64,000 nt of DNA from a bacterium. Its GTDB lineage: Bacteria > UBP14 > UBA6098. The DNA lies in assembly GCA_023145965.1 (NCBI GenBank), contig JAGLDC010000007.1, positions 5,574 through 69,573 of the forward strand, read 5' to 3'. The position numbers and the translations under genes were made by a program. The notes below the pieces were generated by a model. The model had not been told where the DNA came from, ran no database searches, and worked only from the letters and a program-made list of their open reading frames with translations. This document shows positions 4,198 through 43,663 of this stretch, in pieces. Every line of letters begins with the position of its first letter. Within the stretch, counting starts at the first letter, position 1.

Positions 4198-5232
4198 ATG
4201 AAAAAAATAATCTGCATGATGCTAATGTTGACAGCAATTCTCATTACGAATTCACTCGTCGCTGAAGTGCTAGAACCATGTGATGTTTGCACCAATCAGC
4301 TAATCGCGCTCCAGATCTATAATGATCCCTATTATCAAGGTGGAAGTCTGGTGTCGCCGTCAAGCACTTCTGATGATCTAAGTTGTTGTCCCGGGATGTT
4401 GGCCGATGGCGAAGTAGCTCACAGGGACTTTCCTGATACTTTGGCGTTTGGGAACACGATAGATTCGCTTATTACTCTATTTTCCAGCGATACGATTGTA
4501 CCATATTCAACTTCTGCTACTTGGTGGCACCAAGATTTGTTTCCAGGAACTTCTATAGAGGTTCCTCCTCAAGTTCAGGAATGCTGCTGTGTAGATGGTA
4601 TTTTTTGGAAAGCAAAGATGTTTGATGACGCTACATCGACTTGGTCTGAGTGGACAGATGTCCATCAAGCTGGACAGGGTAATACTTCTTTTGGTACAAT
4701 TCTTGTAGCGGCAATTAGCACTGGTGCATTTAAACAACCCGGTTATGGCGGTAATATGTCTTTTGAGTGCAATGTCGATAGTGTTGCCATTTATGTTTGG
4801 GATTGTGCTAATGAACCTGGTATGGAAGGAACCCTTGGCGAATTTGCAGCTAAGGTTGCTACTTATCCCGATAATTCATCTATGGGTCTCGATACCTTGA
4901 TTCTAAGGAGATGGGCAATCCCGACTGGTATTGATGAGAATCCAAAATTACCGCGCGAATATTTCATCTCGCAGAACACGCCGAACCCGTTCAACGCTAC
5001 TACGGCTATCCAGTATGGTCTTCCAGAGGAAGCTGAAGTTCGCGTTGATGTTACAAATCTCCTTGGACAAAGGGTTGCTACTCTCGTTGACGAGAGGCAG
5101 TCTGCAGGATTTAAGCGCCTCATTTGGGATGGTCGCGACAATGTGGGTCACGAGCTACCGAGTGGAGTTTATTTCTATCAGATTAAGGCTAATAGCTTTA
5201 TCGATAAGAAGCGCGCTATCTTGATGAAGTAA
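4198..5232 (+). CDS. Secreted Cys-rich protein with a T9SS (Por) C-terminal sorting domain
   Basis: SD GGAGG lies 6 nt before the ATG. Signal peptide present. The C-terminal ~80 aa, NPFNATTAIQYGLPEEAEVRVDVTNLLGQRVATLVDE..LPSGVYFYQIKANSF..KRAILMK, matches the type-A T9SS CTD pattern (PNPFN..T.I.Y.LP....V.L.IYD..G..V..L......G.H...WDG.......SGVYFY.L). Confidence 0.7.
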   Translation: MKKIICMMLMLTAILITNSLVAEVLEPCDVCTNQLIALQIYNDPYYQGGSLVSPSSTSDDLSCCPGMLADGEVAHRDFPDTLAFGNTIDSLITLFSSDTIVPYSTSATWWHQDLFPGTSIEVPPQVQECCCVDGIFWKAKMFDDATSTWSEWTDVHQAGQGNTSFGTILVAAISTGAFKQPGYGGNMSFECNVDSVAIYVWDCANEPGMEGTLGEFAAKVATYPDNSSMGLDTLILRRWAIPTGIDENPKLPREYFISQNTPNPFNATTAIQYGLPEEAEVRVDVTNLLGQRVATLVDERQSAGFKRLIWDGRDNVGHELPSGVYFYQIKANSFIDKKRAILMK

Positions 5233-5256
5233 GAGATTATTACTTGACTATTAAAG

Positions 5257-5288
5257 AGGGAACTCAGTGTGGGTTCCCTTTTTTATTT
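5257..5288 (+). terminator. Rho-independent terminator after the cargo gene
   Basis: Stem AGGGAAC (5257-5263) pairs with GTTCCCT (5273-5279), 9-nt loop, followed by TTTTTATTTT. Confidence 0.6.
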
Positions 5289-5343
5289 TGTTATATTCGA
5301 TTGGGGTTGTTATCCTGACCTGTAAATGATATATTAATTTATT

Positions 5344-6621
5344 ATGAGAAATGTATTTATTACTATATTATTATTAGTCTCGACTTTTGCCGTGGCAGAA
5401 TCTGTCCCTCTCATTACTATAGATGGTGCAATTAATCCCGTTAGTGCGAAATTTATATTGCGTAACCTCGAACAGGCGCAGGAAGAGGGCGCATCCTGTT
5501 TTATTATTTTATTAGATACGCCGGGCGGTCTTATGACCTCGACAGAAGACCTCACCCGTGCTATTATGTCATCAGATGTGCCGGTTGTTGTTTATGTGTA
5601 TCCTCGCGGAGGACGAGCAGCAAGCGCGGGGGTATTTATTTCTTATTCATCACATATTGTGGCTATGACACCTGGAACTCGCATCGGTGCAGCTCATCCT
5701 GTTTCGATGATGGGCTCTGGTGGCAAATCGGACTCGACCGAGACCATGATGGAAAAAGTAGCCAACGATGCAGTAGCCAATGTCAGGGCCATGGCCTTGG
5801 AACGAGGTAGAAATCCCGATTGGCCGGAAAAGGCGGTTCGTAAATCCGAGAGTATTACCGCCGATAAAGCGCTAGAGTTGGGTGTTGTCGATCTTATTGC
5901 TGAGGATGTTGAGGATTTATTAATCAAGATCAACGGTTTGGCATATGGTCTAGAAAAGGAAGATACATTAAGGCTTAAAAAGCCTGTTGCAATCGAACGA
6001 AAGATGACCAATGTCGAGGACTTCCTATTCGTTATTTTGAACCCAAACATTGCATATATGTTGATGATGCTCGGAATGGTTGGAATTTATCTGGAACTTC
6101 AAAATCCGGGGGGAATACTACCGGGTGTCGTGGGGGCAATTTCGATATTACTTGCTCTTTATGCATTTCAAATACTACCTGTTAATTATGTAGGCATAGC
6201 CTTTTTAATATTGGCAGTCGCACTTTTTATTCTCGAAGCTAATACACCTACGTTTGGTCTTTTAACTACAGGAGGGGTTGTTTCGATGTTAGCTGGAAGT
6301 TTTCTTTTGACGAGCGGTAACGCTACGCTCTTCACTATATCGTGGTCAGTTATTTTACCAACAGTCGCGCTTGCGGCTATCATATCTATATTTGTTTTAT
6401 GGAAGGCTGTAAAGGCGCGGATTTCCCAACCAAAAACTGGCAAAGAAGGCATGATCGGTTTAAAAGGTGTGGTTGTGGAGAAGGCTAGTCCAAATCTGAA
6501 GAATTCTTATATTGAGATTCACGGAGAGCTATGGGCGGCATTTGGCGAAGGCCTCAGTCTTGGGAACGAGGTTGTTGTGATCGCTATCGAATCCGGCAAA
6601 CTTAAGGTGAAAAAAGTCTGA
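5344..6621 (+). CDS. NfeD-like membrane-bound serine protease (ClpP-class protease domain, TM segments and a C-terminal OB-fold)
   Basis: N-terminal ClpP-like domain (LLDTPGGLMTSTEDLTRAI..GGRAASAGVFISYSSHIVAMTPGTRIGAAHPV), central hydrophobic helices, and a C-terminal beta-rich NfeD tail. Confidence 0.8.
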   Translation: MRNVFITILLLVSTFAVAESVPLITIDGAINPVSAKFILRNLEQAQEEGASCFIILLDTPGGLMTSTEDLTRAIMSSDVPVVVYVYPRGGRAASAGVFISYSSHIVAMTPGTRIGAAHPVSMMGSGGKSDSTETMMEKVANDAVANVRAMALERGRNPDWPEKAVRKSESITADKALELGVVDLIAEDVEDLLIKINGLAYGLEKEDTLRLKKPVAIERKMTNVEDFLFVILNPNIAYMLMMLGMVGIYLELQNPGGILPGVVGAISILLALYAFQILPVNYVGIAFLILAVALFILEANTPTFGLLTTGGVVSMLAGSFLLTSGNATLFTISWSVILPTVALAAIISIFVLWKAVKARISQPKTGKEGMIGLKGVVVEKASPNLKNSYIEIHGELWAAFGEGLSLGNEVVVIAIESGKLKVKKV

Positions 6622-6688
6622 TCGTTTTTCACTCTATATCTGTTCAAATTACCCAAAAAAGTGGATAGGCGCTTATCCTTATTGTGTT

Positions 6689-9292
6689 ATGAAAAAAAAC
6701 CCAATCAATATAGATTCTCTGCTTCCGTTAGTTCGAAGACCGGCTAGATATATTGGCGGAGAATTTGGTGCTATTAAAAAGAAAGAAGCTGAAGACTCGC
6801 TTCGATTTTGTCTTTGTTTTCCTGAAATCTACGAGGTTGGGATTTGCCATACTGGAGGATTAATTCTCTATAAGGCCGTGAATGATTATCCCAAGCTTGT
6901 TTGCGAGCGCGCCTACTGCCCGGCAAAAGATATGGACGAGATTCTAAGAGAAAAGAATATTCCACTTTTTTCAATTGAGTCCAAGATTTCACTTTCGGCT
7001 TTCAGGGTTGTGGGCTTTTCACTCGAATATGAGATGTCGTTTACTAATGTGCTTGAAATGCTCGATCTCGCTAATGTTCCAATCTATGCTGATAAGAGAT
7101 CGGAGGAAGATCCGATAGTAATCGCTGGAGGGCCTTGCGTATTTCAGCCCGAACCGATAGCACCTTTTTTCGATCTAATTGTAATTGGCGACGGTGAGAT
7201 TATTTTGCCTGAAATTCTCGAAAAAATCCGGGTTTCTAATCTAGATAGAAGAGCATTGCTTTCAGAATTATCTCAATTTGAGGGAGTATATGTTCCTTCG
7301 CTGTATCGAGAGATATTTCAAGGCTGCGAGTTTAAGGGATTCGAGCCTATTGACGCAGCCTTAAATAGACCCTTTCCTATAAAATCTATACAAGTATATA
7401 ATTTCCAGGATTATAAACCACAGCCTATAGTTCCATGGGTAGAAGCAATCCATGATAGATTGAGTGTCGAGGTTATGCGAGGGTGTGGGCGTGGCTGTAG
7501 ATTCTGCTCAGCTGGATGGATATATAGACCTGTTAGAGAGAAAGATCCCGATTTGATAATCGAAGAAACAACGGAACAAATTGCAAAAACTGGCTGGGAA
7601 GAAATTGGCCTACTCTCGCTTTCGGCAACAGATTATAGCGAAATTAGAACGGTTTTGAGTCGGTTAAGTCCTATTGCGGACAAAAAAATGCTCAGTATCT
7701 CGCTACCGTCAATTCGTCCGAATGAGATAGATGCCACCACTTTAACCGTGCTTTCAATGGTTCGAAAGTCATCCATGACTTTTGCCCCGGAAGCAGCTAC
7801 AGAAAGACTCCGAAAGGTAATAAATAAGAGCATAGATATTGACGAGCTTCTAAAAACGATGGAGCTTATTTTTTCTCACGGTTGGAAAACAATAAAGCTT
7901 TATTTTATGGTAGGTCTTCCAACTGAAACAGAAGAAGATGTTCTGTCTATTGCGGATTTATGTATTAAATGTGATAATATTGCCAGAAAATACAGAGCTA
8001 AAATCAACGTATCGATATCGCCTTTTATACCTAAACCACACACGCCTTTTGCTTGGGAGGGACAGATTTCGGCAGGAGAGATTAAGCACCGCGTGGGTCT
8101 GGTGAAATCGGCTCTTTCCCGCAGGAAAATCAAGATAACAGGACGAGACTCATTTCTTTCGAGTATAGAAACAATACTTTCCCGAGCTGATAGACGCATT
8201 TCTAAGGTTATCGAAGAGGCATGGAAACTGGGTGGTGGTTTCGCTGCTTGGGATGAGAATAATGATGTTTATATTTGGAAAGAAGCATTCGAGAATACCG
8301 AATATGATTTTAATAAACAGCTTTTACCACTCGATCCAAATGAAGTAGCCCCTTGGGAACTCGTCTCTAAAGGCGTTCCTAAATCTTTCTTATTAAATGA
8401 AAGAGAAAAGGCTTATTCAACAAAATATTCACCGAGTTGCTTTGAGCGTGGAGGGTGTAATAATTGCGGTATATGTGACTTTTATACTCAGGATGAATCA
8501 ACAAGACAAAAAGCCCATGTTCCCAAAATAACATCGGTCAATTCCGATTATGGAAGAAGGGTAAAAACTCGGAGGATCAAACCTATTGCTTCTAATCTCG
8601 TTCGAGTCAGATATTCTAAAACAGGAAATACCAGATGGTTAGGGCATCTCGACACAACACGGACTTTAATCCGCGCTATTCGTAGAGCAGAATGGGATAT
8701 GGCATATTCAGAGGGACATCACAAACACCCAAAAATTGCCTTCGGACCTCCTCTTCCAACTGGTTATCAAAGCAGAGCGGAATTTATGGATATCGAGTTT
8801 GTTTCCTCCATTCCATCAATACATGATTTATCATCCAACCTCCCAAATGGAATGGAAATTATTAATGATGAAAGAATATTTAAAAAGGGCAGTAGCCTTT
8901 TTGATTCCATAGGTGCTGCACTCTATAGAGTCTTCCTTCCAGAAGATATCGCCGAGCGCTATACAGAATCACTGGAAAGCCTATTTTTAAGAGATGTGAT
9001 ACCATTCACCCGTAGGGGGAAAGAAATTGATATTAAACGATTCTATAAAGCGCATTCATTTGAAAAGGCAGATAATAATGGAGTTAATTTATTCCTTATA
9101 TTGAATTGCAATTCACAAGGTTCCGGCAGACCGGATGAATATATTTCTTTTGTCGGTATCAAGCAGCCCTTTGCTCATGGAATAGAATATATTCGTGAAG
9201 AGCTTATGGTTGAACATGCAGATATTTACTTTGACCCCTTTGGAGGAAGGTGGGGAACTTGGGATGAATGGATTTTACATGAACATAATTAA
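6689..9292 (+). CDS. Radical SAM protein, TIGR03960-like N-terminal part fused to a DUF2344/TIGR03936-like C-terminal part
   Basis: N-terminus PARYIGGEFGAIKKK..FCLCFPEIYEVGICHTGGLILY resembles the TIGR03960 signature. CxxxCxxC motif MRGCGRGCRFCSAGW. The C-terminal 250 aa (VRVRYSKTGNTRWLGHLDTTRTLIRAIRRAEWDMAYSEGHHKHPKIAFGPPLP) resembles the radical-SAM-associated DUF2344. Confidence 0.75.
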   Translation: MKKNPINIDSLLPLVRRPARYIGGEFGAIKKKEAEDSLRFCLCFPEIYEVGICHTGGLILYKAVNDYPKLVCERAYCPAKDMDEILREKNIPLFSIESKISLSAFRVVGFSLEYEMSFTNVLEMLDLANVPIYADKRSEEDPIVIAGGPCVFQPEPIAPFFDLIVIGDGEIILPEILEKIRVSNLDRRALLSELSQFEGVYVPSLYREIFQGCEFKGFEPIDAALNRPFPIKSIQVYNFQDYKPQPIVPWVEAIHDRLSVEVMRGCGRGCRFCSAGWIYRPVREKDPDLIIEETTEQIAKTGWEEIGLLSLSATDYSEIRTVLSRLSPIADKKMLSISLPSIRPNEIDATTLTVLSMVRKSSMTFAPEAATERLRKVINKSIDIDELLKTMELIFSHGWKTIKLYFMVGLPTETEEDVLSIADLCIKCDNIARKYRAKINVSISPFIPKPHTPFAWEGQISAGEIKHRVGLVKSALSRRKIKITGRDSFLSSIETILSRADRRISKVIEEAWKLGGGFAAWDENNDVYIWKEAFENTEYDFNKQLLPLDPNEVAPWELVSKGVPKSFLLNEREKAYSTKYSPSCFERGGCNNCGICDFYTQDESTRQKAHVPKITSVNSDYGRRVKTRRIKPIASNLVRVRYSKTGNTRWLGHLDTTRTLIRAIRRAEWDMAYSEGHHKHPKIAFGPPLPTGYQSRAEFMDIEFVSSIPSIHDLSSNLPNGMEIINDERIFKKGSSLFDSIGAALYRVFLPEDIAERYTESLESLFLRDVIPFTRRGKEIDIKRFYKAHSFEKADNNGVNLFLILNCNSQGSGRPDEYISFVGIKQPFAHGIEYIREELMVEHADIYFDPFGGRWGTWDEWILHEHN

Positions 9293-20422: not shown

Positions 20423-20451
20423 TTGACATAGTAAATTGATTTTTTATATTT
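20423..20451 (+). promoter_or_regulatory. Sigma70-type promoter (TTGACA-N16-TATATT) for the HIT-plsC-leu-acc array
   Basis: TTGACA at 20423-20428 and TATATT at 20445-20450, about 25 nt upstream of SD GGAG and the ATG at 20475. Confidence 0.45.
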
Positions 20452-20474
20452 CAATATTAAAAATTGGAGTTAAA

Positions 20475-20954
20475 ATGGAAAAAATTTGGGCACCCTGGCG
20501 AATGGAATATATCGAGAGTTCCGGTGATAAAACCGGTTGTTTTTTGTGTGATGCTTTTGCATCGCTCGAAGACAGAGCTAATCTTGTTCTTGCAAGGCGT
20601 AAGCATGCTTTTCTTTTAATGAACCGCTATCCTTACACAAATGGTCACTTAATGGCTGTGCCAATCAAACATACTGGCGACTTGGACGATTTAAGCCCTG
20701 CCGAATTAACCGGGACTATGGAGTTAGTGAATGAATCTGTTCGGGCGCTGAGGGAAGTGATTTGTGCTCAGGGATTCAATATTGGTATCAATCTTGGGGC
20801 TGTCGCTGGAGCGGGTATGATAGACCATGTTCATATCCACATAGTCCCTCGATGGCTTGGAGATACGAATTTTATGCCAGTTTTGGGAGAAACTAAGGTT
20901 ATTAGTGAACACCTACTCGAAACCTACGATAAACTCAAATCCTCTTTTGAATGA
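20475..20954 (+). CDS. HIT family (histidine triad) nucleotide hydrolase/transferase
   Basis: Histidine triad HVHIHIVPRW. The start is chosen at MEKIWAPW, preceded by SD GGAG. Confidence 0.85.
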   Translation: MEKIWAPWRMEYIESSGDKTGCFLCDAFASLEDRANLVLARRKHAFLLMNRYPYTNGHLMAVPIKHTGDLDDLSPAELTGTMELVNESVRALREVICAQGFNIGINLGAVAGAGMIDHVHIHIVPRWLGDTNFMPVLGETKVISEHLLETYDKLKSSFE

Positions 20955-21661
20955 TTAAGCGAATTGCCGCATCGATTTTTTTCACTATTTGTGCTCCGTT
21001 CCTTTTTTTTGGTTCGATTTTTGCTTATATTTCATTTAAAATTGCAGGCTTATTTGGAAAAAGTGTGTTGCTCGTTGTGAGCAGAATTGTCCATTTGCTT
21101 TGGGGCAGGTTTGCGGTATATTCCGCGCTATCATCCGTTCGAGTGGTGGGAAAAAAGAAGATTCCCCATGGGAAGGCAGTTGTGATGTATTCGAATCACG
21201 CGAGTTTTTTTGATATACCAATAATCTCAGGATTTGTTTTGCCCTCCGGTATCTATGTTGCGCGTAAGGGACTGGCTTTATCACCAGCAATAAAGGCCTC
21301 GGGAGGTGTGCTTATTGAGCAGAAGAGCACACGAAAGGAAATTAGAAACATTCGAGAGATAGTCTCCAAAATAAAAGCAGGTCGTTCTTTTATTATTTTC
21401 CCAGAGGGCACGCGCTCGCGCGATGGCTCTGTTGGTGAGCTGAAAGCTGGTTCTCTTAAAATAGCTCAGTGGGCGGAAGTTCCTGCTATACCAATAAGAA
21501 TTGAAGGTTCGAGAGATTTGCTGGCAAGAGGTATGATGTGGCCAAAACCAAGCAAAATTGTTGTTTACATCGGCGATCCCATTACATGCGATGAGATACG
21601 AGCAGATTCGTCTGCAGTTTTGGAAAAAATAACCGATTTTTATACAAGAAACACGAATTAA
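20951..21661 (+). CDS. plsC: 1-acyl-sn-glycerol-3-phosphate acyltransferase
   Basis: Acyltransferase motifs NHASFFD (HX4D) and FPEGTRS. N-terminal TM helix. 4-nt overlap with the HIT gene. Confidence 0.8.
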   Translation: MIKRIAASIFFTICAPFLFFGSIFAYISFKIAGLFGKSVLLVVSRIVHLLWGRFAVYSALSSVRVVGKKKIPHGKAVVMYSNHASFFDIPIISGFVLPSGIYVARKGLALSPAIKASGGVLIEQKSTRKEIRNIREIVSKIKAGRSFIIFPEGTRSRDGSVGELKAGSLKIAQWAEVPAIPIRIEGSRDLLARGMMWPKPSKIVVYIGDPITCDEIRADSSAVLEKITDFYTRNTN

Positions 21662-21674
21662 TGGGGGAGAAGAG

Positions 21675-22931
21675 ATGGGCAAGACCATCGCTGAGAAAAT
21701 TTTAGCTAAGAACGCTGGTATTGAGTCCGTTATGTCGGGACAGATTGTAACTTCGAGACCCGATGTAGTGCTTTCTCACGATAATAGCGCTGCGATAATC
21801 GGTCATTTCAAGAAACTGGGTGTAGAGAAGGTCAAAATCCCTGATAAAATAGTAATAGTATTAGATCATGTCACTCCAGCCGCTACGGAAATTTATGCTA
21901 CAAATCATAAAAAGATTCGGGAGTTTGTAAATAAACAGGGGATAAGCCACTTTTTCGATATTGGACGCGGAATATGTCATCAAGTTCTACCGGAGGAGGG
22001 TTTTTCGACACCGGGAGCGCTTATTCTTGGAGCGGATAGCCATACAACATCGCATGGAGCATTTGGAGCATTTGCTGCTGGGATAGGCAGGAGCGAAGTA
22101 GCAGTTTTATGGGCTACGGGTGAACTATGGTTAAGAGTTCCCGAGAGCTTTATTATTCGTCTTTCTGAAGAATTTCACGAATTTGTGTCGCCGAAGGATT
22201 TAGCCCTTCATATTATAGGTAAAATCGGCGCCGATGGCGGGATTTATAAATCCATTGAATTCGCTGGACCAGGGCTTAAATCGCTGGGGATATCGGGCAG
22301 GTTTGTCCTGTCGAATATGGCAGCGGAGATGGGAGCTAAAGCGGGTATATGTCATCCGGATGATGAGGTGCTTCATTGGCTCGAGGGTAGGGCGAAACGA
22401 GAGTTGAAGCCCGTACTTCCAGATGACGATGCTATCTATGAGCGCGAATTTAATTTCGCTTTGGAAGATGTCGAGCCTATGATTGCTCGTCCACACACAG
22501 TGGATAATGTGGATTTGGCGAAAAACGCAGAGGATATTGTTCTTGATCAGGTGCTTATAGGAACATGCACAAATGGCAGGCTCGACGATCTTCACGCTGC
22601 ACGAAAGATTCTCGGAGGAAGAAAGGTTGCGCGTGGTGTTCGAATGTTGGTTTTTCCAGCGAGCAGAGAGGTATATATATCAGCGGCTTCAGATGGCACA
22701 TTTGCCTCATTGGCTGAGGCCGGTGCCACTATAATGAATCCCGGTTGTGGTCCATGCCTTGGTGCACATGAAGGTGTAATGGCGCCTGGTGAGGTTACAC
22801 TTTCCACAGCAAACAGAAATTTTAAAGGCAGAATGGGTTGTCGTGATTCAGAGATATATCTTGCTAGCCCTTTCACCGCAGCGGCTTCGGCGATTACCGG
22901 TAGAATAACAGACCCAAGGGAGTTTCTATGA
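21675..22931 (+). CDS. leuC: 3-isopropylmalate dehydratase (aconitase family) large subunit, small archaeal-type
   Basis: 418 aa aconitase-family catalytic domain with Cys ligands (GTCTNGR, PGCGPCLG), typical of LeuC/HACN large subunits. Confidence 0.8.
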   Translation: MGKTIAEKILAKNAGIESVMSGQIVTSRPDVVLSHDNSAAIIGHFKKLGVEKVKIPDKIVIVLDHVTPAATEIYATNHKKIREFVNKQGISHFFDIGRGICHQVLPEEGFSTPGALILGADSHTTSHGAFGAFAAGIGRSEVAVLWATGELWLRVPESFIIRLSEEFHEFVSPKDLALHIIGKIGADGGIYKSIEFAGPGLKSLGISGRFVLSNMAAEMGAKAGICHPDDEVLHWLEGRAKRELKPVLPDDDAIYEREFNFALEDVEPMIARPHTVDNVDLAKNAEDIVLDQVLIGTCTNGRLDDLHAARKILGGRKVARGVRMLVFPASREVYISAASDGTFASLAEAGATIMNPGCGPCLGAHEGVMAPGEVTLSTANRNFKGRMGCRDSEIYLASPFTAAASAITGRITDPREFL

Positions 22932-23434
22932 TCATCGAAGGAAAGGTTTTTAAATATGGCGACGATGTTAACACTGATGTCATCTTTCCGGGAAAATACA
23001 CATACGAGCCTTTTACACCCGAGCAGATGGCCGAGCACGCCCTCGAAGATCTAGACCCGACATTCAGGGGGCGATGCGAAGTAGGAGATATTATAGTATC
23101 AGGAAAGAACTTCGGTTGTGGGTCGAGTAGAGAACAAGCAGCAATTGCTATACATGCTGCTGGTTGCAGGGCGATAATCGCCCCGAGTTTTGCTAGGATA
23201 TTTTATAGAAATTGCCTTAATAGCGGTTTATTTGCATTGACAAATAGCGAAATCCAGAGTAAAATTGTAAACTATGATAGGATCAAGATCGATATTGATA
23301 ATGGAACTATCGAGGTTAATGGAGAAGTTTTTCGCTTTCCAAAGCCCTCCGAAGATGTTATCGGTATCCTGGAAGCAGGCGGTTTGATACCGTATACTCG
23401 TTTGAAACTTGAGACAACGAGGGGAGATAGGTGA
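22928..23434 (+). CDS. leuD: 3-isopropylmalate dehydratase small subunit (swivel domain)
   Basis: 168 aa. NFGCGSSREQAAIAI is the LeuD/aconitase swivel-domain signature. 4-nt overlap with leuC. Confidence 0.8.
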   Translation: MIIEGKVFKYGDDVNTDVIFPGKYTYEPFTPEQMAEHALEDLDPTFRGRCEVGDIIVSGKNFGCGSSREQAAIAIHAAGCRAIIAPSFARIFYRNCLNSGLFALTNSEIQSKIVNYDRIKIDIDNGTIEVNGEVFRFPKPSEDVIGILEAGGLIPYTRLKLETTRGDR

Positions 23435-23919
23435 ACACAAACAAGGTCAAAGAGATACTCAAGATGATCGAGGAAAGTCCACTGGACCAATTAGAGATCG
23501 AAGTCAAACAGTTCGGAGGTAAGGGAATTCGCGTTCGAAAAGGTTCTCTTGCCAACTCTGATAGTTGTGATGTTCGCTCGCCGAATACAATAGATATGGT
23601 TGGTTCTTCATTTAAGGACACCACCTCAGCAAAGTCTTCGGAAAGCGAAAGTCTCGAAAGGGAGCTCAATGATAACCAGATCGAAATCGTTTCTCCGATT
23701 GTTGGCACTTTCTACCGAGCACTATCGCCAGATTCACCGCCTTATGTAGAAGAGGGCGAGTCGATTAGCGCTAATCAGGTTGTTTGCATTGTAGAGGCCA
23801 TGAAGTTGATGAATGAGATTCAATCCGAGGTTTCTGGTGTAGTGGAGAAGATATTGGTTGAAAACAATCACCCTGTCGAATTTGGTCAAGTAATGTTTAT
23901 AATTAACACCCAGAAGTAA
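23431..23919 (+). CDS. accB: Biotin carboxyl carrier protein
   Basis: Biotinyl-lysine motif CIVEAMKLMNEI. GTG start overlapping the leuD stop. Confidence 0.85.
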   Translation: MNTNKVKEILKMIEESPLDQLEIEVKQFGGKGIRVRKGSLANSDSCDVRSPNTIDMVGSSFKDTTSAKSSESESLERELNDNQIEIVSPIVGTFYRALSPDSPPYVEEGESISANQVVCIVEAMKLMNEIQSEVSGVVEKILVENNHPVEFGQVMFIINTQK

Positions 23920-23920
23920 T

Positions 23921-25114
23921 ATGTCAATCGATGTAATAAAACTACTTTCCCAAATGCCCTCGAAAGAAGTTTCGGATTTGCACCTTAGGGTCAACATGCC
24001 GCCAATATATCGTATTCACGGTAAGCTTGTTCCTGCACTTAGGGAGTTTCTTTCCAAAGAGGATATGGAGAATCTCATTCACCATATTTTGACTGAGAAG
24101 CAAAGGCAACGCTTCGATGAGGAATGGGAACTTGACATGGGTTTAAATGTTCCTACCGGCGAGCGTTTTCGTGTCAATATCTATCGCGAACGTGGAACTC
24201 CGGGAATAGCCTTCAGGCTTGTTAGCGCTCAAGTCCCAGATTTCAACGAGTTAAATCTTCCAAATATTTTGAAAAAGCTATCTACGCAACCTCGTGGATT
24301 ATTATTAGTTACAGGTGTTACCGGTTCTGGTAAATCGACTACTCTTGCCTCTATGATAGATTTTGTTAACAGGAATAAAGGTGTCAATATTCTCACTATC
24401 GAAGACCCTATCGAATATGTTCATACAAATAGAAGGTCTATCATTGCTCAGCGAGAGATAGGAGGCGATTGCAGGTCTTTTGCTATGGGATTGAGGCAAG
24501 CTCTTCGACAGGATCCAGATGTTATTTTGGTTGGCGAGATTCGCGATGCAGATACTATGTCAATTGCCCTTTCGGCGGCGGATACAGGGCATTTGGTAAT
24601 GAGCACACTTCACACTTTGGATAGCTTACAAACAATATATCGAATATTGTCATTTTTTCCGCCACATCAGCACCAGGAGATTCGACATCTGCTTTCGAGC
24701 ACTTTACAAGCAGTTATCTCCCAACGGCTTGTTCCAAGAAGTGATAAACCCGGGCGTGTTCCTGCAGTAGAGATATTAATAGGCACAGGTGCGGTTCGAG
24801 AGTGTATTGTCGATTCATCTAAAACGACTTCGATTAGAGATTTAATATCTGAGGGTGCCAGTCAATATGGTATGCAGAGTTATGACCAGTCCCTGATGTG
24901 GTTTTACCAGAATGGTGCGATTTCACTTGAACTTGCTCTCGAAAACTCCACTAACCCAGATGATTTCAAGCTTCGCGTGGATGGTGTTCTCTCGGGTTCC
25001 GACCGCGGTTGGGCCGAGTTTGCCGCTACACAGAGTGATGTATCCCACGAGGAGAATGAAAACTCGATTAAGAAATCGAAAAAGAGTAGGGGGGATAAGT
25101 CCTCAGATGCTTAA
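23921..25114 (+). CDS. pilT: PilT/PilU-family type IV pilus retraction ATPase, inserted between accB and accC
   Basis: Walker A GVTGSGKSTTLASM. PilT C-terminal motifs SIRDLISEG and GMQSYDQSL. Extra acidic/Lys-rich C-terminal tail of ~35 aa. Confidence 0.85.
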   Translation: MSIDVIKLLSQMPSKEVSDLHLRVNMPPIYRIHGKLVPALREFLSKEDMENLIHHILTEKQRQRFDEEWELDMGLNVPTGERFRVNIYRERGTPGIAFRLVSAQVPDFNELNLPNILKKLSTQPRGLLLVTGVTGSGKSTTLASMIDFVNRNKGVNILTIEDPIEYVHTNRRSIIAQREIGGDCRSFAMGLRQALRQDPDVILVGEIRDADTMSIALSAADTGHLVMSTLHTLDSLQTIYRILSFFPPHQHQEIRHLLSSTLQAVISQRLVPRSDKPGRVPAVEILIGTGAVRECIVDSSKTTSIRDLISEGASQYGMQSYDQSLMWFYQNGAISLELALENSTNPDDFKLRVDGVLSGSDRGWAEFAATQSDVSHEENENSIKKSKKSRGDKSSDA

Positions 25115-26453
25115 GAAAGTTCTTGTCGCAAACAGGGGAGAGATTGCCCTGCGTGTGATTCGGGCCTGTCGCGAACTCGATATTCCGACGGTAGCTGTGT
25201 ATTCGACGGCTGATAGGTTTAGTCTTCCTGTATTGCTTTCAAATGAATCAATCTGCATAGGTGCTCCTAAACCCTTCGAGAGTTATCTCGATTCGAGGAG
25301 GATTCTATCTGCTGCAATTATAAGCAATTCCGATGCTATACATCCAGGATATGGATTTTTAGCAGAGAATGCGGATTTCGCGGAGAAATGCTTCGCCCAT
25401 GGTATAAAATTCATCGGGCCAACTGCGAATATGATTCGTCAGATGGGTGATAAAGTGAAGGCAAAAGAGATAATGGATGAAGTAGGCATACCGACTATAC
25501 CCGGTTCTAAAGGATTAGTGGAAAGTTACGATAGGGCTTTGGCCGTTGCCGAAGAGATATCCTATCCCATTATGATCAAGGCTGCATATGGTGGTGGTGG
25601 TAAAGGGATGAGGATAGTCCGCAAACAGGATGAGCTCAAAGGGAGCTTTTCCATAGCAAAACTCGAGGCAGAGAATGCCTTTGGAAATTCTGGTGTTTAT
25701 CTCGAACGATATGTAGAGAATCCGAGACATATAGAAGTGCAGCTTCTCGGCGACGGTAAAGGAAAAGTTATCTATCTGGGTGAGAGGGATTGTTCGATTC
25801 AAAGAAGGCATCAAAAACTTATAGAAGAATCGCCTTCACCTGCAGTTGATGAAATCACTAGAAAGATGATAGGCGAGACTGCCGCGCGAGGTGCTTCTGT
25901 GATAAAATATGAGGGAGCTGGCACTATCGAATTCCTTCTCGATGTGAGCGGCGATTTTTATTTTCTGGAGATGAACACGAGGATTCAAGTCGAGCATCCA
26001 GTGACTGAAAGCGTTGTAGATATGGATCTGGTGAAAGAGCAAATAAGAATAGCTAACGGATTGGGATTATCGAGGTCTCAAGATGATATTTCGCTTTCAG
26101 GACACGCAATAGAATGCCGTATCAATGCCGAGGATCCCTCGAAAGGTTTTGCACCAAGGCCTGGGAAGATAACTGCTTTTCATCCACCGGGAGGGCCCGG
26201 TGTTCGCGTCGATACACATGCTTATGCTGAATATGTTATTACGCCGTATTACGATTCCATGATAGCCAAACTTATTTGTCGTGGTCGTGATCGTGCCGAG
26301 GCACTTGCCCGAATGAACCGCGCGCTGGATGAATTTATTATCGAGGGAATTCCGACCACTATTCCATTTCATAAAAAGGTCATAAACGATCCAAATTTTA
26401 TCGCAGGCGATTATAATACAGCTTTTATCGAACGCTTTTCGAATAATTTGTGA
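25107..26453 (+). CDS. accC: Biotin carboxylase subunit of acetyl-CoA carboxylase
   Basis: MLKKVLVANRGEIALRVIRACRELDIPTVAVYS is the canonical AccC N-terminus, with ATP-grasp motifs. The start overlaps the pilT stop by 8 nt (ATGCTTAA). Confidence 0.9.
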   Translation: MLKKVLVANRGEIALRVIRACRELDIPTVAVYSTADRFSLPVLLSNESICIGAPKPFESYLDSRRILSAAIISNSDAIHPGYGFLAENADFAEKCFAHGIKFIGPTANMIRQMGDKVKAKEIMDEVGIPTIPGSKGLVESYDRALAVAEEISYPIMIKAAYGGGGKGMRIVRKQDELKGSFSIAKLEAENAFGNSGVYLERYVENPRHIEVQLLGDGKGKVIYLGERDCSIQRRHQKLIEESPSPAVDEITRKMIGETAARGASVIKYEGAGTIEFLLDVSGDFYFLEMNTRIQVEHPVTESVVDMDLVKEQIRIANGLGLSRSQDDISLSGHAIECRINAEDPSKGFAPRPGKITAFHPPGGPGVRVDTHAYAEYVITPYYDSMIAKLICRGRDRAEALARMNRALDEFIIEGIPTTIPFHKKVINDPNFIAGDYNTAFIERFSNNL

Positions 26454-26517
26454 TAAGCTTTTTTAATAAAAATTGATTATGTTACACCGAATCGATTCTA
26501 ATCTAAAGGAGATCATC

Positions 26518-27636
26518 ATGCCGAAGAAAAAAATAGCTGTTTTACCCGGTGACGGTGTAGGTAACGATGTCATGGAAGCCACTTTTATTGTTCTCGATCA
26601 ATTAAAACCCGATGTCGATTATGAATGGGGAGATATTGGTTGGGAATTCTGGCGCACCGAGGGGGATGCACTACCCGAAAGGACTATCGAGCTTCTAAAA
26701 AGAACCGATGCCTGCCTTTTCGGAGCGATTACGAGCAAGCCTAAGGAAGAGTGTGAGGAGGAACTTGTCCCGGAACTGAGGGGCAAAGGATTGGTCTATC
26801 GTTCACCTATAGTTCAATTACGACAGTTGCTCGATCTATATGTGAACTATCGTCCCTGTAAGGCATATAAGAATAATCCACTTATTTACCGAGAGGGCAT
26901 CGATTTACATGTTTTTAGGGAGAACACCGAGGGGCTTTATTCAGGTGTTGAGTATCATCCTTTAACGGATGATCTAAGAGCCAAAATGATCGAACACAAT
27001 AAAAATCTGAAAAAATTCGAGGGAATCGATGGGGATGATATAGCGATCTCATGCAGGGTTTTCTCTCGGCGTGGATGCGAGAGAATAGTGCGTTCAGCGT
27101 TCGAGTTTGCAAAAACAAAGGGGTATAAGACAGTTACTGTCGTTGAAAAACCGAATGTAATCCGCGAAACCTCGGGATTAATGGTTCGCGAAGCGCGTAA
27201 AGTAGCCAGTGAATTCCCCGGGATAGAACTTTGGGAGACCAATGTCGATGCTATGTGCATGTGGTTACTGAAGAATCCCCTTGAATATAGCGTTCTTGTA
27301 TCTAGCAATATGTTTGGAGACATTGTAAGTGATCTCTGCGCCCAATTGGTTGGAGGTTTAGGTTTTGCCAGCTCGGGAAGTTGGAGCGATCATTACGCGC
27401 TTTTCGAGCCCACGCATGGAAGTGCTCCAAAGTATTATGGGTTATATAAGGTCAATCCCATTGCGATGATACTTTCAACCGGCTTGATGCTTGATTATAT
27501 CGGCGAATGCGATAAGGCTGTGGCTTTGGAAAGTGCCGTTGCAAAAGTTGTCGCCGATGGCAAGGTTAGGACATATGATATGGGCGGATCAAATTCAAGC
27601 TTAGAGCTTGGGGAAGCAATCGCAGCGAAACTATGA
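26518..27636 (+). CDS. Isocitrate/3-isopropylmalate dehydrogenase family protein (LeuB- or Icd-like)
   Basis: NMFGDIVSDLCAQLVGGLGFASSGS and LRQLLDLYVNYRP are signatures of the beta-decarboxylating dehydrogenase family. An Icd-like insert is present, so LeuB versus IDH is unresolved. Confidence 0.7.
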   Translation: MPKKKIAVLPGDGVGNDVMEATFIVLDQLKPDVDYEWGDIGWEFWRTEGDALPERTIELLKRTDACLFGAITSKPKEECEEELVPELRGKGLVYRSPIVQLRQLLDLYVNYRPCKAYKNNPLIYREGIDLHVFRENTEGLYSGVEYHPLTDDLRAKMIEHNKNLKKFEGIDGDDIAISCRVFSRRGCERIVRSAFEFAKTKGYKTVTVVEKPNVIRETSGLMVREARKVASEFPGIELWETNVDAMCMWLLKNPLEYSVLVSSNMFGDIVSDLCAQLVGGLGFASSGSWSDHYALFEPTHGSAPKYYGLYKVNPIAMILSTGLMLDYIGECDKAVALESAVAKVVADGKVRTYDMGGSNSSLELGEAIAAKL

Positions 27637-41095: not shown

Positions 41096-41148
41096 TTATG
41101 AAAAACCAAAAAACCAATATAACTAATATGTTTCCCAAGGAGGAACAA

Positions 41149-42516
41149 ATGAAGTTTAACCGCATCGCAAACGGCGTGATGCTGGCAGTGCTTTTCGGAA
41201 TTATTGCAATTTGTGGAACCCTAGCGGCGCAAGCGCCAGCTGAACTGGATTCTATTTGGTTGCATACTTCCGATGCCAAGTGGGAGAAAACCGACGAAGG
41301 TTTTAATCTCACGATGTCATGGGAGCTTTACATCAAGAAAGCTCAAGATAAAAAAGGCTCTAAATTTTCAGGTGAATGGACTAAACTTTCTCCTGAGAAT
41401 GTAGAGTATACTTATCGCGTAGAAGTAGCTACTGATTCGGTTTTCAGCCAAATCGATAAGACTCAGGAAACTAATGAGGCTTCGCTAGTAATCCGCGATC
41501 TAAACTTTGACAAGTTTTATACTTCCAGAGTGCGTATTGTAGATCCTCCGGTCAATTATCGAGACGATTTCGCTGCCGGAACGATTTATAAACATGAAAA
41601 GGAAACCGGCGGAAAAAGCGAAGAACGAAAAGGCGTTATTGGTTTCTTACTTTTCGCCTTCGATAAGGGCGGATGGCAAACCTACGTTATTATTGCTCTC
41701 GCTTTATTGGGAATCCTGGGAGTTATGCCGATAACATGGTATAGACTTCGTTTGGCGAATATCTTCCCGCCGAATAAACCCGGGTTCTTATATTCGGCTT
41801 TGCCTTTCGATAGAACCGGGAAATGCGATCATCTATCGCCTAAGGGCAATGTCTTTGTTCGCGAAGTGGCAAAATATTGGTCGCGGGCTATGGCGGCTAT
41901 GGCATCCGATCCCTCGAATTGGGAGAGCACCGATGCTTTTATTAAAGCTACGGCTCAAGAACAAGAGGAAGTTAAGAAGCGCCGTTGGATCGAAGAGGGT
42001 CTTCCTGCGATAGAGCAGGCTATCGATGTCTGTAAAAATGGCGTTCCCGGTATCAAACTGAAGAAAAAACCGCTCGACTACCCGTTCCCGCGCGTTCTTC
42101 TCGCGGCGCTGGAAAATCAGAGGATTAACCGCAATAACTGGTGGGCGAGTCAGGAAATGGACAGAGCCGTTGAGAACACCTCGTTTAAAGAAATCGACGA
42201 TCTTAAGGGATGGAGTGTCACGGCATTCTGGGCTTTAGGTTCGGTTGAGCCTATGCTCGGTTTGTTCGGCACTGTTGAAGGAATTCAGAAGGCCTTCATG
42301 AAGATCCAGGAGCAATTAAAGGAAAATCCGGATGCGCCTATGGCCGATACGATTGAAAACCTCGCAGGAGGTATTCATCAAGCGCTTATTACCACGTTCT
42401 TCGGATTGCTCTTCGGTATTCCGTTCATGATGATTTACTATTATTATCGTGGAAAAGCTGATTGGGTTTTCTCCAAATGGGAGGAAATCGTTATCGACCT
42501 ATTAAACAGGGCCTAA
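41149..42516 (+). CDS. exbB: MotA/TolQ/ExbB-family proton channel protein with a ~200-aa N-terminal extracytoplasmic domain
   Basis: C-terminal part has three TM helices and the family motif MLGLFGTVEGIQKAF. Strong SD AAGGAGG lies 5 nt before the ATG at 41149. The N-terminal signal peptide is followed by a beta-rich domain with no recognisable family. Confidence 0.75.
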   Translation: MKFNRIANGVMLAVLFGIIAICGTLAAQAPAELDSIWLHTSDAKWEKTDEGFNLTMSWELYIKKAQDKKGSKFSGEWTKLSPENVEYTYRVEVATDSVFSQIDKTQETNEASLVIRDLNFDKFYTSRVRIVDPPVNYRDDFAAGTIYKHEKETGGKSEERKGVIGFLLFAFDKGGWQTYVIIALALLGILGVMPITWYRLRLANIFPPNKPGFLYSALPFDRTGKCDHLSPKGNVFVREVAKYWSRAMAAMASDPSNWESTDAFIKATAQEQEEVKKRRWIEEGLPAIEQAIDVCKNGVPGIKLKKKPLDYPFPRVLLAALENQRINRNNWWASQEMDRAVENTSFKEIDDLKGWSVTAFWALGSVEPMLGLFGTVEGIQKAFMKIQEQLKENPDAPMADTIENLAGGIHQALITTFFGLLFGIPFMMIYYYYRGKADWVFSKWEEIVIDLLNRA

Positions 42517-42532
42517 CCCAAGGAGGGGCAGA

Positions 42533-43102
42533 ATGCCCAGAAAACAAACAGAGGCTGTACCTTCTGCTGACTGGACCTCCTTAATCGATATCATCTTCCA
42601 GTTGCTCATCTTCTTCATGGTGACGCTGGCTATGGGGACAGTCGAGCAACAGGCTAGTGCCCAGATGGAAGGTGAAATGGATGAGAGCCTACCCGAGTTG
42701 CCCGGAATGAGTAATCTCGGTGAAGCCTTAGAAATCGGCCCCGGCGTGATACTTATTCATGCCGCTTACGATGAAGATAATGAAGTTGCAGGCGATATAG
42801 TAACATATCTCTTTACGAACGAGATCTCGAATATTGAAGAGGCGAAGAAAGATTCAACTCATAGCGCGGGTCCGTTCTCTTGGGATAAAGCCTATAAGAA
42901 GCTGCAAAAGCAGCTTACTTTTGCTCGTGATTACAACGAAAACCTTCCGAGGGTCGAGATGAGGGCTTTTAAGGGAACTCCTTACGGTAATGTTCTCGAT
43001 ATTATGAACCTATGCTATCACGACGAACCCGAAATGAGAATCGATCAGGTATATTTTAGGTTTGCTAGATTAGCTAGAGAGCAATTGGGAGGTGGAAGTT
43101 AG
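42533..43102 (+). CDS. exbD: ExbD/TolR-family biopolymer transport protein (paralogue 1)
   Basis: N-terminal DWTSLIDIIFQLLIFFMVT is the ExbD/TolR TM signature. SD AAGGAGGGG. Confidence 0.75.
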   Translation: MPRKQTEAVPSADWTSLIDIIFQLLIFFMVTLAMGTVEQQASAQMEGEMDESLPELPGMSNLGEALEIGPGVILIHAAYDEDNEVAGDIVTYLFTNEISNIEEAKKDSTHSAGPFSWDKAYKKLQKQLTFARDYNENLPRVEMRAFKGTPYGNVLDIMNLCYHDEPEMRIDQVYFRFARLAREQLGGGS

Positions 43103-43663
43103 ATGCAGAGAAGATATCTTAATCTTGAAAGCGCCGACTGGACGCCTTTAATCGATATTATCTTCCAGTTGATGATCTTCTTCCTGGTAACGATGAGCGT
43201 TCTTCCGGCGGTGAAATCTGCACCGCAGGTCGAGGGGAATATGTCGCTTCCGACACCGAATCAAGGAAGTTCTGAAGTCTCACACCTTATTCAGATATTG
43301 AAGGTCCCTTTCAAATCCGACATGTATGGTTATCTTGTTCTTGACGGCACTCCGCAATCTGCCGAATTCTATAAGGATGTTGACAGAAACCGTCAGTTTT
43401 TAGGTGACCAATATGCATTGGAAAGTGAAATTGTTCTTGGAACAAATATGGGGCTTTGGTTTAACGAGACAAGTCTTAAAGCGAAGTTTCAAGAAGCCTT
43501 CAGTCAACAGGATGTTAAGGTGATTATTAGAGCTGCCAGGAATGTCCCATATGGAGAGGTAGTAAAGGTTCATTCGATATTGTTTAATATCGGTATATCC
43601 AAGATCGCTTGGTTGGATGGCAAGATTGGAACTCTTAAGGCTGACATCAAGGAGGTGAGGTAG
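43103..43663 (+). CDS. exbD: ExbD/TolR-family biopolymer transport protein (paralogue 2)
   Basis: DWTPLIDIIFQLMIFFLVT. The start directly abuts the previous stop. SD GGAGGTGG. Confidence 0.75.
   Translation: MQRRYLNLESADWTPLIDIIFQLMIFFLVTMSVLPAVKSAPQVEGNMSLPTPNQGSSEVSHLIQILKVPFKSDMYGYLVLDGTPQSAEFYKDVDRNRQFLGDQYALESEIVLGTNMGLWFNETSLKAKFQEAFSQQDVKVIIRAARNVPYGEVVKVHSILFNIGISKIAWLDGKIGTLKADIKEVR

Follow-up and report, generated by a model that had tools for sequence, protein, structure and literature searches.

The locus described here lies within a 64,000-nucleotide (nt) stretch of bacterial DNA (contig JAGLDC010000007.1, positions 5,574 to 69,573 of the forward strand, hereafter termed 'the window'), and raises the question of how a gene for an ATPase of the PilT/PilU family came to be placed between accB and accC, the genes that encode the biotin carboxyl carrier protein (BCCP) and the biotin carboxylase of acetyl-CoA carboxylase (ACC), and what the product of that gene might do. 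In Escherichia coli and bacteria of its type, accB and accC form an operon of two genes, and in many bacteria they are found in the order pepP/efp-accB-accC. The original prediction regarded their interruption as unusual, called for a check of the assembly for chimerism, and took the ATPase to be an orphan PilT or PilU with a possible role outside of pilus function.

Conservation of the accB-pilT-accC order

The gene order and overlaps described in that prediction proved correct to the base when compared to the list of open reading frames (ORFs) and the raw sequence. The accB gene, which begins with GTG and ends with TAA (23917-23919), is separated by a single spacer base (T, at 23920) from the ATG of the PilT-family gene, which comprises 397 codons; the TAA stop codon of that gene (25112-25114) is in turn embedded in the sequence ATGCTTAA, whose ATG (25107) starts accC, corresponding to an overlap of 8 nt. 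Immediately upstream, a leuD-like gene shares its last 4 nt (GTGA) with accB, whose GTG start is at 23431. AccB passes the BCCP equivalog model TIGR00531 (133.4 bits, as compared to a cut-off of 115.2, with model positions 1-155 aligned from its first residue), and AccC similarly passes TIGR00514 (697.4 bits, cut-off 626.5). A longer ORF that opens at 24912 does not represent the real start of accC, because the alignment to TIGR00514 begins at residue 1 of the protein that is initiated at 25107.

Comparisons with related genomes, which the original prediction had proposed, established that the interruption is indeed unusual, yet is a trait of an entire clade and not a one-off. The closest database proteins to the window ATPase are labelled either as Zixibacteria or as unclassified 'bacterium', and the closest species representative ('bacterium UBP14_UBA6098', an unplaced metagenome-assembled genome (MAG) from a candidate phylum) encodes a homologue with 89% identity in an identical gene order. 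Across homologues displaying 89, 73, 66, 64 and 56% identity, BCCP is encoded directly upstream in all five and biotin carboxylase directly downstream in four, and the outer flanks vary. A scan using one genome per species produced 80 loci (including the closed chromosomes CP070742.1 and OY970208.1 and a 2.1-Mb contig of RBG-1), for which AccB and AccC neighbours were called using hidden Markov models that were built from the loci and searched against six-frame segments. AccB was found no more than 520 nt upstream, on the same strand, at 69 of 76 evaluable species-level loci, and AccC was found within 560 nt downstream at 36 of 66 loci and within 6.3 kb at 52 of 66; the strict accB-pilT-accC trio was present at 34 of 63. 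In a second, independently drawn set of 74 metagenome contigs, the corresponding values were 48 of 54 for adjacent AccB and 32 of 46 for adjacent AccC. Adjacency to accB is thus approximately 90% in more than 120 independent related assemblies, a frequency well above any that chance would produce, and AccC is encoded directly next to the ATPase in approximately 55-70%.

This recurrence bears directly upon the possibility that an assembly or binning chimera joined a pilT fragment to accB and accC. Only the oddity of the arrangement speaks for such an artefact, and its probability is now negligible: the same order is repeated across independent assemblies from many projects (among them the two closed chromosomes and a contig of 770 kb), an identical (A/G)TGCTTAA overlap junction recurs in three other assemblies (L010, L011 and L012), and base composition is even across the region, with a GC content over the ATPase gene (0.41-0.46) that is the same as that of its neighbours. 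The concern over chimerism is refuted by these observations.

In mainstream Zixibacteria, the surrounding block encodes a PfkB kinase, a cytidylyltransferase, a TPR protein, PepP (M24), AccB, the PilT-like protein, AccC, GcvH and GcvP, and is the common pepP-accB-accC arrangement with the addition of one inserted gene. The locus resembles the known operon in that it encodes equivalog-level AccB and AccC on one strand and in the usual order (with pepP upstream in mainstream Zixibacteria), but differs from it in that an unrelated ATPase gene of 1.2 kb lies in between. A neighbour-joining tree of the ATPases, which is crude and lacks reference rooting, contains two main divisions, corresponding to the window's own and to mainstream Zixibacteria. 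Because the accB-pilT adjacency is present in both divisions, it is ancestral; losses are few, and are nested and derived within the tree, with five species (L023, L033, L039, L057 and L068) lacking accB as a neighbour of the ATPase gene. These comparisons show that the ATPase gene was inserted into pepP-accB-accC in an ancestor shared by Zixibacteria and the UBP14-like lineage, and has been kept since. Horizontal acquisition of pilT alone was also considered, but neither the base composition, which is uniform, nor the gene tree, which agrees with the subclades defined by genomic context, points to it. No prior description of a conserved accB-[pilT2-like]-accC arrangement was found, and that order represents a robust genomic signature of genomes of the Zixibacteria/UBP14 type.

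Outside of those lineages, two out-group loci were sampled, and neither displays the accB arrangement. These nearest out-group relatives (49% identity, with a similar C-terminal S-D/E-x motif) are located directly after recA (L172, 3566-6220) and directly after ftsA-ftsZ (L173, 3380-7101), and their placement therefore suggests a tendency of the broader subfamily, across lineages, to settle beside housekeeping genes.

The most persistent link within the trio is that between accB and pilT, which is kept in one subclade (L006, L016-L021 and L104) even though accC has moved away. Tight packing, with gaps of up to approximately 20 nt or overlaps, is found only in the window's division; at the other loci, the two spacers have medians of 84 and 95 nt. 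In the window itself, a pattern search of the accB/pilT/accC junctions identified no terminator-like site and no promoter comparable to the candidate at 20423-20450 (all promoter and terminator calls described here being pattern or consensus matches). The 1-nt gap and the 8-nt start/stop overlap therefore make it a reasonable inference that accB, the ATPase gene and accC are co-transcribed and translationally coupled in the window's subclade. Across the wider set of loci, terminator-like hairpins were found in 9 of 45 accB-pilT spacers and 9 of 26 pilT-accC spacers, as compared to approximately one expected from their rate inside coding sequence, and the accB, pilT-like and accC genes of mainstream Zixibacteria may be separate transcription units despite their kept order. 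The closed Zixibacteria chromosome L054 carries strong hairpins (11-bp stems followed by a T-run) at 7736-7761 and 9156-9180, after accB and after the pilT-like gene respectively.

Relationship to the canonical PilT of the lineage

The window ATPase scores 447.4 bits against the PilT/PilU family model TIGR01420 (cut-off 319.1), with alignment from its first residue across model positions 4-343 of 343. Its Walker A, Asp box, Walker B and His box (GVTGSGKST, LTIEDPIEY, RQDPDVILVGEIRD and DTGHLVMSTLHTL) are intact, and are conserved in 84 of 84 aligned locus sequences; the protein is predicted to be a catalytically competent, hexameric ATPase of the PilT family. An additional signature, FFPPHQHQ, is found at all 84 loci when an FF or FY variant is counted. 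A monomeric AlphaFold2 model computed from 40 sequences displays a mean predicted local distance difference test score (pLDDT) of 86.4 and a predicted template modelling (TM) score of 0.80, is confident across residues 1-355, and falls below a pLDDT of 50 from residue 362. In a Foldseek search, the model matched most closely to PilT2 (5FL3; 47% identity, E 2.9e-46), followed by PilU (9N32) and PilT4 (E values of approximately 1e-43 to 1e-46), with TM-scores of up to 0.93 (normalised to target length), in agreement with a predicted two-domain PilT fold.

Beyond the end of the PilT model (residue 348), the protein continues for 49 residues. The original prediction had described an extra acidic, lysine-rich tail of approximately 35 residues; such a tail is real, but the variable acidic/lysine-rich portion comprises just the last 30 residues or so, and the first 18 or so correspond to a conserved motif, D-G-V-L-S-G-S-D-R-G-W-A-E-F (in the subfamily, G-I/V-x-G-x-S-D-R-G-W-x-E-F). 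Among 40 sequences, G355 and W364 are invariant, and D361, R362, G363 and E366 are conserved at a level of at least 90%. A comparison of the C-terminal 68 residues of the ATPase against the PDB produced no match.

As judged from sequence comparisons, the accB-linked ATPase is a paralog that belongs to a distinct subfamily, and is not the canonical PilT of its lineage. One contig (L104, 82,638 bp), the only one recovered when contigs of the window's closest relatives were compared with those that carry pilus genes, harbors both types: an accB-linked ATPase that is 63% identical to that of the window and, 7 kb upstream, a second PilT-family gene that is followed by pilC and a PilS-like kinase. 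The second protein scores 485 bits against TIGR01420, carries the motifs GPTGSGKST and AIRAMIRE, and is 43% identical to the window ATPase. A search with that canonical PilT recovered 120 further proteins, many of them labelled as Zixibacteria or GN15; the canonical gene is found in the context pilB-pilT-pilC-pilS in a closed genome of 3.84 Mb (L170), and in the context pilB-x-pilT-pilC-pilS in L171.

The two types display a median identity of 44%, and neither carries the motif set that marks the other. Among 120 accB-type database matches and 120 canonical Zixibacteria PilTs, the Walker A form G[VTI]TGSGKST was found in 117 of the former, and the canonical form GPTGSGKST in one of the former versus 117 of the latter; FFPPHQHQ in 104 versus none; the C-terminal S-D-R-G-W in 118 versus none; and A[IV]RxxIR[ED] in 2 versus 113. 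When the two types were compared to proteins of solved structure, the accB type scored slightly higher than the canonical copy against Thermus thermophilus PilT2 (5FL3; 346 versus 333 bits), and lower against Geobacter PilT4 (299-308 versus 476-483), Pseudomonas aeruginosa PilT (280 versus 390) and PilU (9N32; 261 versus 280). With canonical PilTs (PilT4 of G. metallireducens and G. sulfurreducens, and those of P. aeruginosa and A. aeolicus) the accB type shares the family model, the two-domain fold and the catalytic boxes, but it differs from them in its degenerate AIRNLIRE motif, changed Walker A residue, FFPPHQHQ signature and C-terminal extension.

These comparisons also address the possibility that the accB-linked ATPase is no more than the main (or sole) PilT motor of the organism at an unusual operon position. 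The protein is named PilT by NCBI, it has the family score and motifs expected of an active PilT-type ATPase, and in two relatives (L033 and L140) the gene directly follows pilQ, all of which would agree with such an explanation; it is nonetheless unlikely, as relatives from both branches have a separate canonical PilT encoded beside pilB/pilC (on the same contig in L104), the gene in the window has accB and accC as its neighbours and not pilB or pilC, the accB type falls short of the canonical copy by approximately 180 bits when scored against experimentally studied PilTs, and it lacks AIRNLIRE, a motif with an important role in PilT of P. aeruginosa. Automatic annotation as 'PilT' in Zixibacteria/UBP14 therefore hides two different genes. 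The accB type constitutes a recognisable PilT-type subfamily (defined by G[VTI]TGSGKST, FFPPHQHQ, the SDRGW extension and the lack of AIRNLIRE) that coexists with canonical PilT in an uncultured phylum, and for which no description was found.

Several additional features of PilT-family genes were observed in the course of these comparisons. In the closed Zixibacteria genome L170, genes for a Roadblock/LC7 (MglB-like) protein and an Arf/Ras-type (MglA-like) GTPase (5128-7066) are located directly upstream of pilB-pilT-pilC-pilS, an organization that recalls the control of pilus polarity in Myxococcus. In L171, a third ATPase of the T2SSE family (7824-8990, 388 amino acids (aa)) is encoded between pilB and the canonical pilT; it contains a CxxC…CxxC segment and altered Walker B and His-box regions (VPRQDVDILFVSE; DMGLLVFATMRS), and may be a degenerate or regulatory paralog. 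Finally, the top representatives of a library clustered at 50% identity (P0361-P0368 and P0374) are proteins of 700-1000 aa that each contain two PilT-like stretches, and would represent tandem or fused PilT-family ATPases.

Candidate functions of the accB-linked ATPase

The best reading of these data, and on balance a probable one, is that the gene encodes an accessory (PilT2/PilU-like) retraction ATPase for a type IVa pilus that has become fixed in a housekeeping operon. Its pilus-associated accessory function, and the role of its C-terminus, can be inferred by analogy with two known systems. In Thermus, twitching involves both PilT1 and PilT2. Like the latter, the accB-linked ATPase is a second PilT-family ATPase beside another PilT, and Thermus PilT2 is its best match in both sequence and fold, with an FFP-x-H-x-H type segment (DFFPLHEHRQ) and a non-AIRNLIRE motif (YVRELLKD) of its own; the Thermus protein differs in that it retains GPTGSGKST and lacks the SDRGW extension in the alignment (which ends at query residue 353), and the identity of 47% between the two is a level at which orthology is not established. 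PilU (from P. aeruginosa, 9N32, as well as V. cholerae and M. xanthus, MXAN_1995), which is encoded in pilTU operons and is not known to have a good AIRNLIRE motif, is likewise a second PilT-family ATPase with a C-terminal extension past the PilT core, and matches the predicted fold with a TM-score of up to 0.91; the accB-linked gene differs from those operons in that it is not next to pilT, and its C-terminal motif is unlike that of PilU. The assignment of 5FL3 to PilT2 has been published (PMC6153414), and agrees with the Foldseek description. The C-terminal extension of PilU is a distinguishing feature that is absent from PilT, and wraps around or contacts the PilT ring (bioRxiv 10.1101/2025.10.30.685630); PilU of M. 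xanthus possesses a disordered C-terminal region and is encoded outside of the main pil cluster (PMC13584747). More generally, genomes of other organisms (G. sulfurreducens PilT1-3, M. xanthus, and Neisseria PilT2) contain several PilT-family genes at a distance from the pil cluster, whose roles are partly overlapping or unclear (PMC5065972, PMC13584747, PMC10790696); none of those paralogs is reported inside of accBC.

In such a mechanism, the accB-linked ATPase would serve as an accessory motor of the type IVa pilus, in the manner of T. thermophilus PilT2 or PilU, and its conserved C-terminal extension and acidic tail may be what attaches it to a partner ring, in the way that PilU uses its C-terminus to contact PilT. 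Its position in accBC would most likely provide housekeeping-type expression that is independent of the PilS-associated pil cluster, and need not mean a role in fatty-acid synthesis. The presence of a conserved C-terminal motif in an independent lineage offers a natural test case for how second motors dock and tune retraction.

A connection of the gene to pili is suggested by its relatives. As the original prediction had noted, the window carries no other type IV pilus gene, a result that was reproduced both by Pfam scans of its 47 ORFs of at least 150 aa (smaller ORFs being outside of that scan) and by a six-frame search of all 64 kb, in which no prepilin motif of the form G-F/M-T/S-L-I-E was found. 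In the Zixibacteria genome RBG_16_53_22, however, pepP-accB-pilT is found on one contig (L056), and genes for a GspH-like minor pilin, pilM, pilN, pilO, an AMIN protein and the pilQ secretin on another (L089), and homologues of PilM are plentiful among MAGs from Zixibacteria. The accB-type ATPase of L033 and L140 is encoded immediately after pilin-GspH-pilMNO-(PilP-like)-pilQ, with accC still located 3-6 kb downstream; among the upstream regions that were checked, only these two have pil genes directly at the accB-type ATPase. This placement is a derived rearrangement according to the tree, and pilus genes are therefore the sole functionally coherent new neighbours that the ATPase gene has acquired. 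A 585-aa ORF between pilO and pilQ in L033 has no Pfam match. ORFs of 570-585 aa upstream of pilT in L023 and L039 were considered as candidates for PilB and rejected, as they encode SurA-like rotamases and Mfd.

The description of the gene in the original prediction as an orphan PilT or PilU was thus accurate insofar as it is a stray paralog, and relatives possess a separate canonical PilT in a pil cluster; its suggested non-pilus role is not indicated, since relatives have pilus genes. The same prediction had held that a pilus locus elsewhere in the genome would reduce the arrangement to a curiosity of synteny, and the existence of such loci was confirmed at the level of the clade, the source genome having been analysed within the window.

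Four observations weigh against an accessory pilus function: (i) the AIRNLIRE motif is degenerate in the accB-linked ATPase; (ii) its similarity to PilU (261 bits, 37-38% identity) is below that to PilTs (280-346 bits), and is a matter of analogy and not of membership; (iii) pilus genes are absent from the window, such that a pilus machine in the source organism is deduced from its relatives; and (iv) the accB-pilT adjacency is kept both where accC has left and across hairpin-bearing spacers, so that hitch-hiking within an operon is not an obvious explanation for its persistence.

The last of these points leads to a further possibility, in which the ATPase is functionally coupled to ACC, or has some other non-pilus role; it might, for instance, regulate or remodel ACC through BCCP or biotin carboxylase, or tie the supply of membrane lipid to envelope machinery. 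The adjacency of accB and pilT outlasts the proximity of pilT to accC or of accB to accC, and survives the loss of accC from the neighbourhood, a full turnover of the outer flanks between subclades, and the presence of terminator-like hairpins between the genes; in addition, a canonical PilT is already present elsewhere, and the conserved C-terminal motif lacks an assigned partner. Coupling of this type is nevertheless rather improbable, given that AccB and AccC are ordinary, equivalog-level proteins, that five species have lost accB as a neighbour, that the new neighbours with a related function are pilus genes (pilMNOPQ, in L033 and L140), that the two nearest out-group relatives reside beside recA and ftsZ and not accB, and that no link was found in the literature. 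The proposal that the near-universal adjacency may mark a functional or physical partnership of the PilT2-like hexameric ATPase with BCCP or ACC (for example as ATP-driven control of ACC assembly or activity, or as a means of coupling lipid synthesis to the dynamics of the envelope or pilus, in a non-pilus or dual job) is likewise improbable. Literature searches recovered no relevant paper that combined accB, accC and pilT, Zixibacteria and pilT, or BCCP and PilT; a co-mention of BCCP and PilT in a Francisella secretome paper is unrelated. If the adjacency were functional, it would link an ATPase of the secretion superfamily to central lipid metabolism, for which no precedent was found; if it is mere history, it represents a minor example of an unrelated gene that was frozen inside of a highly conserved operon.

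Features of the surrounding window

The accB-pilT-accC trio belongs to a longer co-directional run of genes, which encode a HIT protein, a PlsC-type acyltransferase, LeuC/LeuD-like subunits, AccB, the PilT-like ATPase, AccC, an Iso_dh-family protein, a Memo/AMMECR1 protein and an M23 peptidase (Table 1). The HIT-PlsC prefix is also kept in L001, L002, L004, L008 and L015. The trio is nested between the LeuC/LeuD-like genes (21675-23434) and the dehydrogenase gene downstream of accC, such that a leu/hac-type set is split by the trio in the window's subclade; that dehydrogenase gene matched no NCBIfam equivalog at its cut-off. In L004 and L015, which are without the LeuC/LeuD-like and dehydrogenase genes, the order is HIT-PlsC-accB-pilT-accC, followed by an LpxA-like gene.

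Table 1. Coordinates of the accB-pilT-accC locus, of its neighbouring genes, and of motifs within the ATPase (window numbering)
Feature	Position	Strand	Basis or remark
Candidate operon promoter, sigma-70-like TTGACA-16-TATATT, 11/12	20423..20450	+	Consensus match, best in the intergenic region ahead of the run
HIT-family hydrolase, first gene of the run	20475..20954 (ATG 20475 in ORF 20436-20954)	+	Pfam HIT 3.6e-13
PlsC-type acyltransferase, 4-nt overlap with HIT gene	20951..21661	+	Pfam Acyltransferase 2.6e-20
LeuC/HacA-type (aconitase-family) dehydratase, large subunit	21675..22931	+	NF001614 540.9 bits (cut-off 385); TIGR01343 517.6 bits
Small subunit, LeuD/DmdB family	22928..23434	+	TIGR02087 169 bits (cut-off 109)
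accB, biotin carboxyl carrier protein, EAMKLMN biotinylation motif	23431..23919	+	TIGR00531; Pfam Biotin_lipoyl 6e-21
accB-linked PilT-family ATPase paralog, predicted hexameric, 397 aa	23921..25114	+	TIGR01420; 5FL3 best PDB match
Walker A, G-V-T-G-S-G-K-S-T, residues 132-140	24314..24340	+	Subfamily form G[VTI]TGSGKST versus canonical GPTGSGKST
FFPPHQHQ signature, residues 245-252	24653..24676	+	Exact form in 82/84 locus sequences
A-V-R-E-C-I-V-D, residues 291-298, degenerate AIRNLIRE counterpart	24791..24814	+	Motif comparison
Conserved extension, D-G-V-L-S-G-S-D-R-G-W-A-E, residues 354-366	24980..25018	+	C-terminal to the part covered by the PilT family model
Variable acidic/Lys-rich tail, residues 367-397, for which low confidence or disorder is predicted; last codons overlap accC	25019..25111	+	Alignment of tails; AlphaFold2
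accC start/PilT-family stop overlap ATGCTTAA	25107..25114	+	Raw sequence
accC, biotin carboxylase	25107..26453	+	TIGR00514 697 bits; NF006367 707 bits
Isopropylmalate/homoisocitrate/isocitrate dehydrogenase-family gene, 58 nt past accC	26512..27636	+	Pfam Iso_dh 9.7e-84

Two further regions of the window, at a distance from the trio, display unusual features. On the reverse strand, a pyruvate phosphate dikinase gene (51321-54071) is split by one in-frame TAA (53565-53567, in the context …GGT GTG TAA CTC GAC ATG…) into ORFs of 168 and 745 aa, which corresponds either to a nonsense mutation or pseudogene or to a sequencing error. Between 30778 and 49241, genes for very large proteins (1228, 1595 and 1120 aa) with FlgD_ig, Big_13 and CHU_C/T9SS-type C-terminal domains are interleaved with those for TPR proteins; a MotA/ExbB-ExbD-ExbD set is located in their midst (41098-43663), and the run as a whole could be a surface or gliding-type apparatus.

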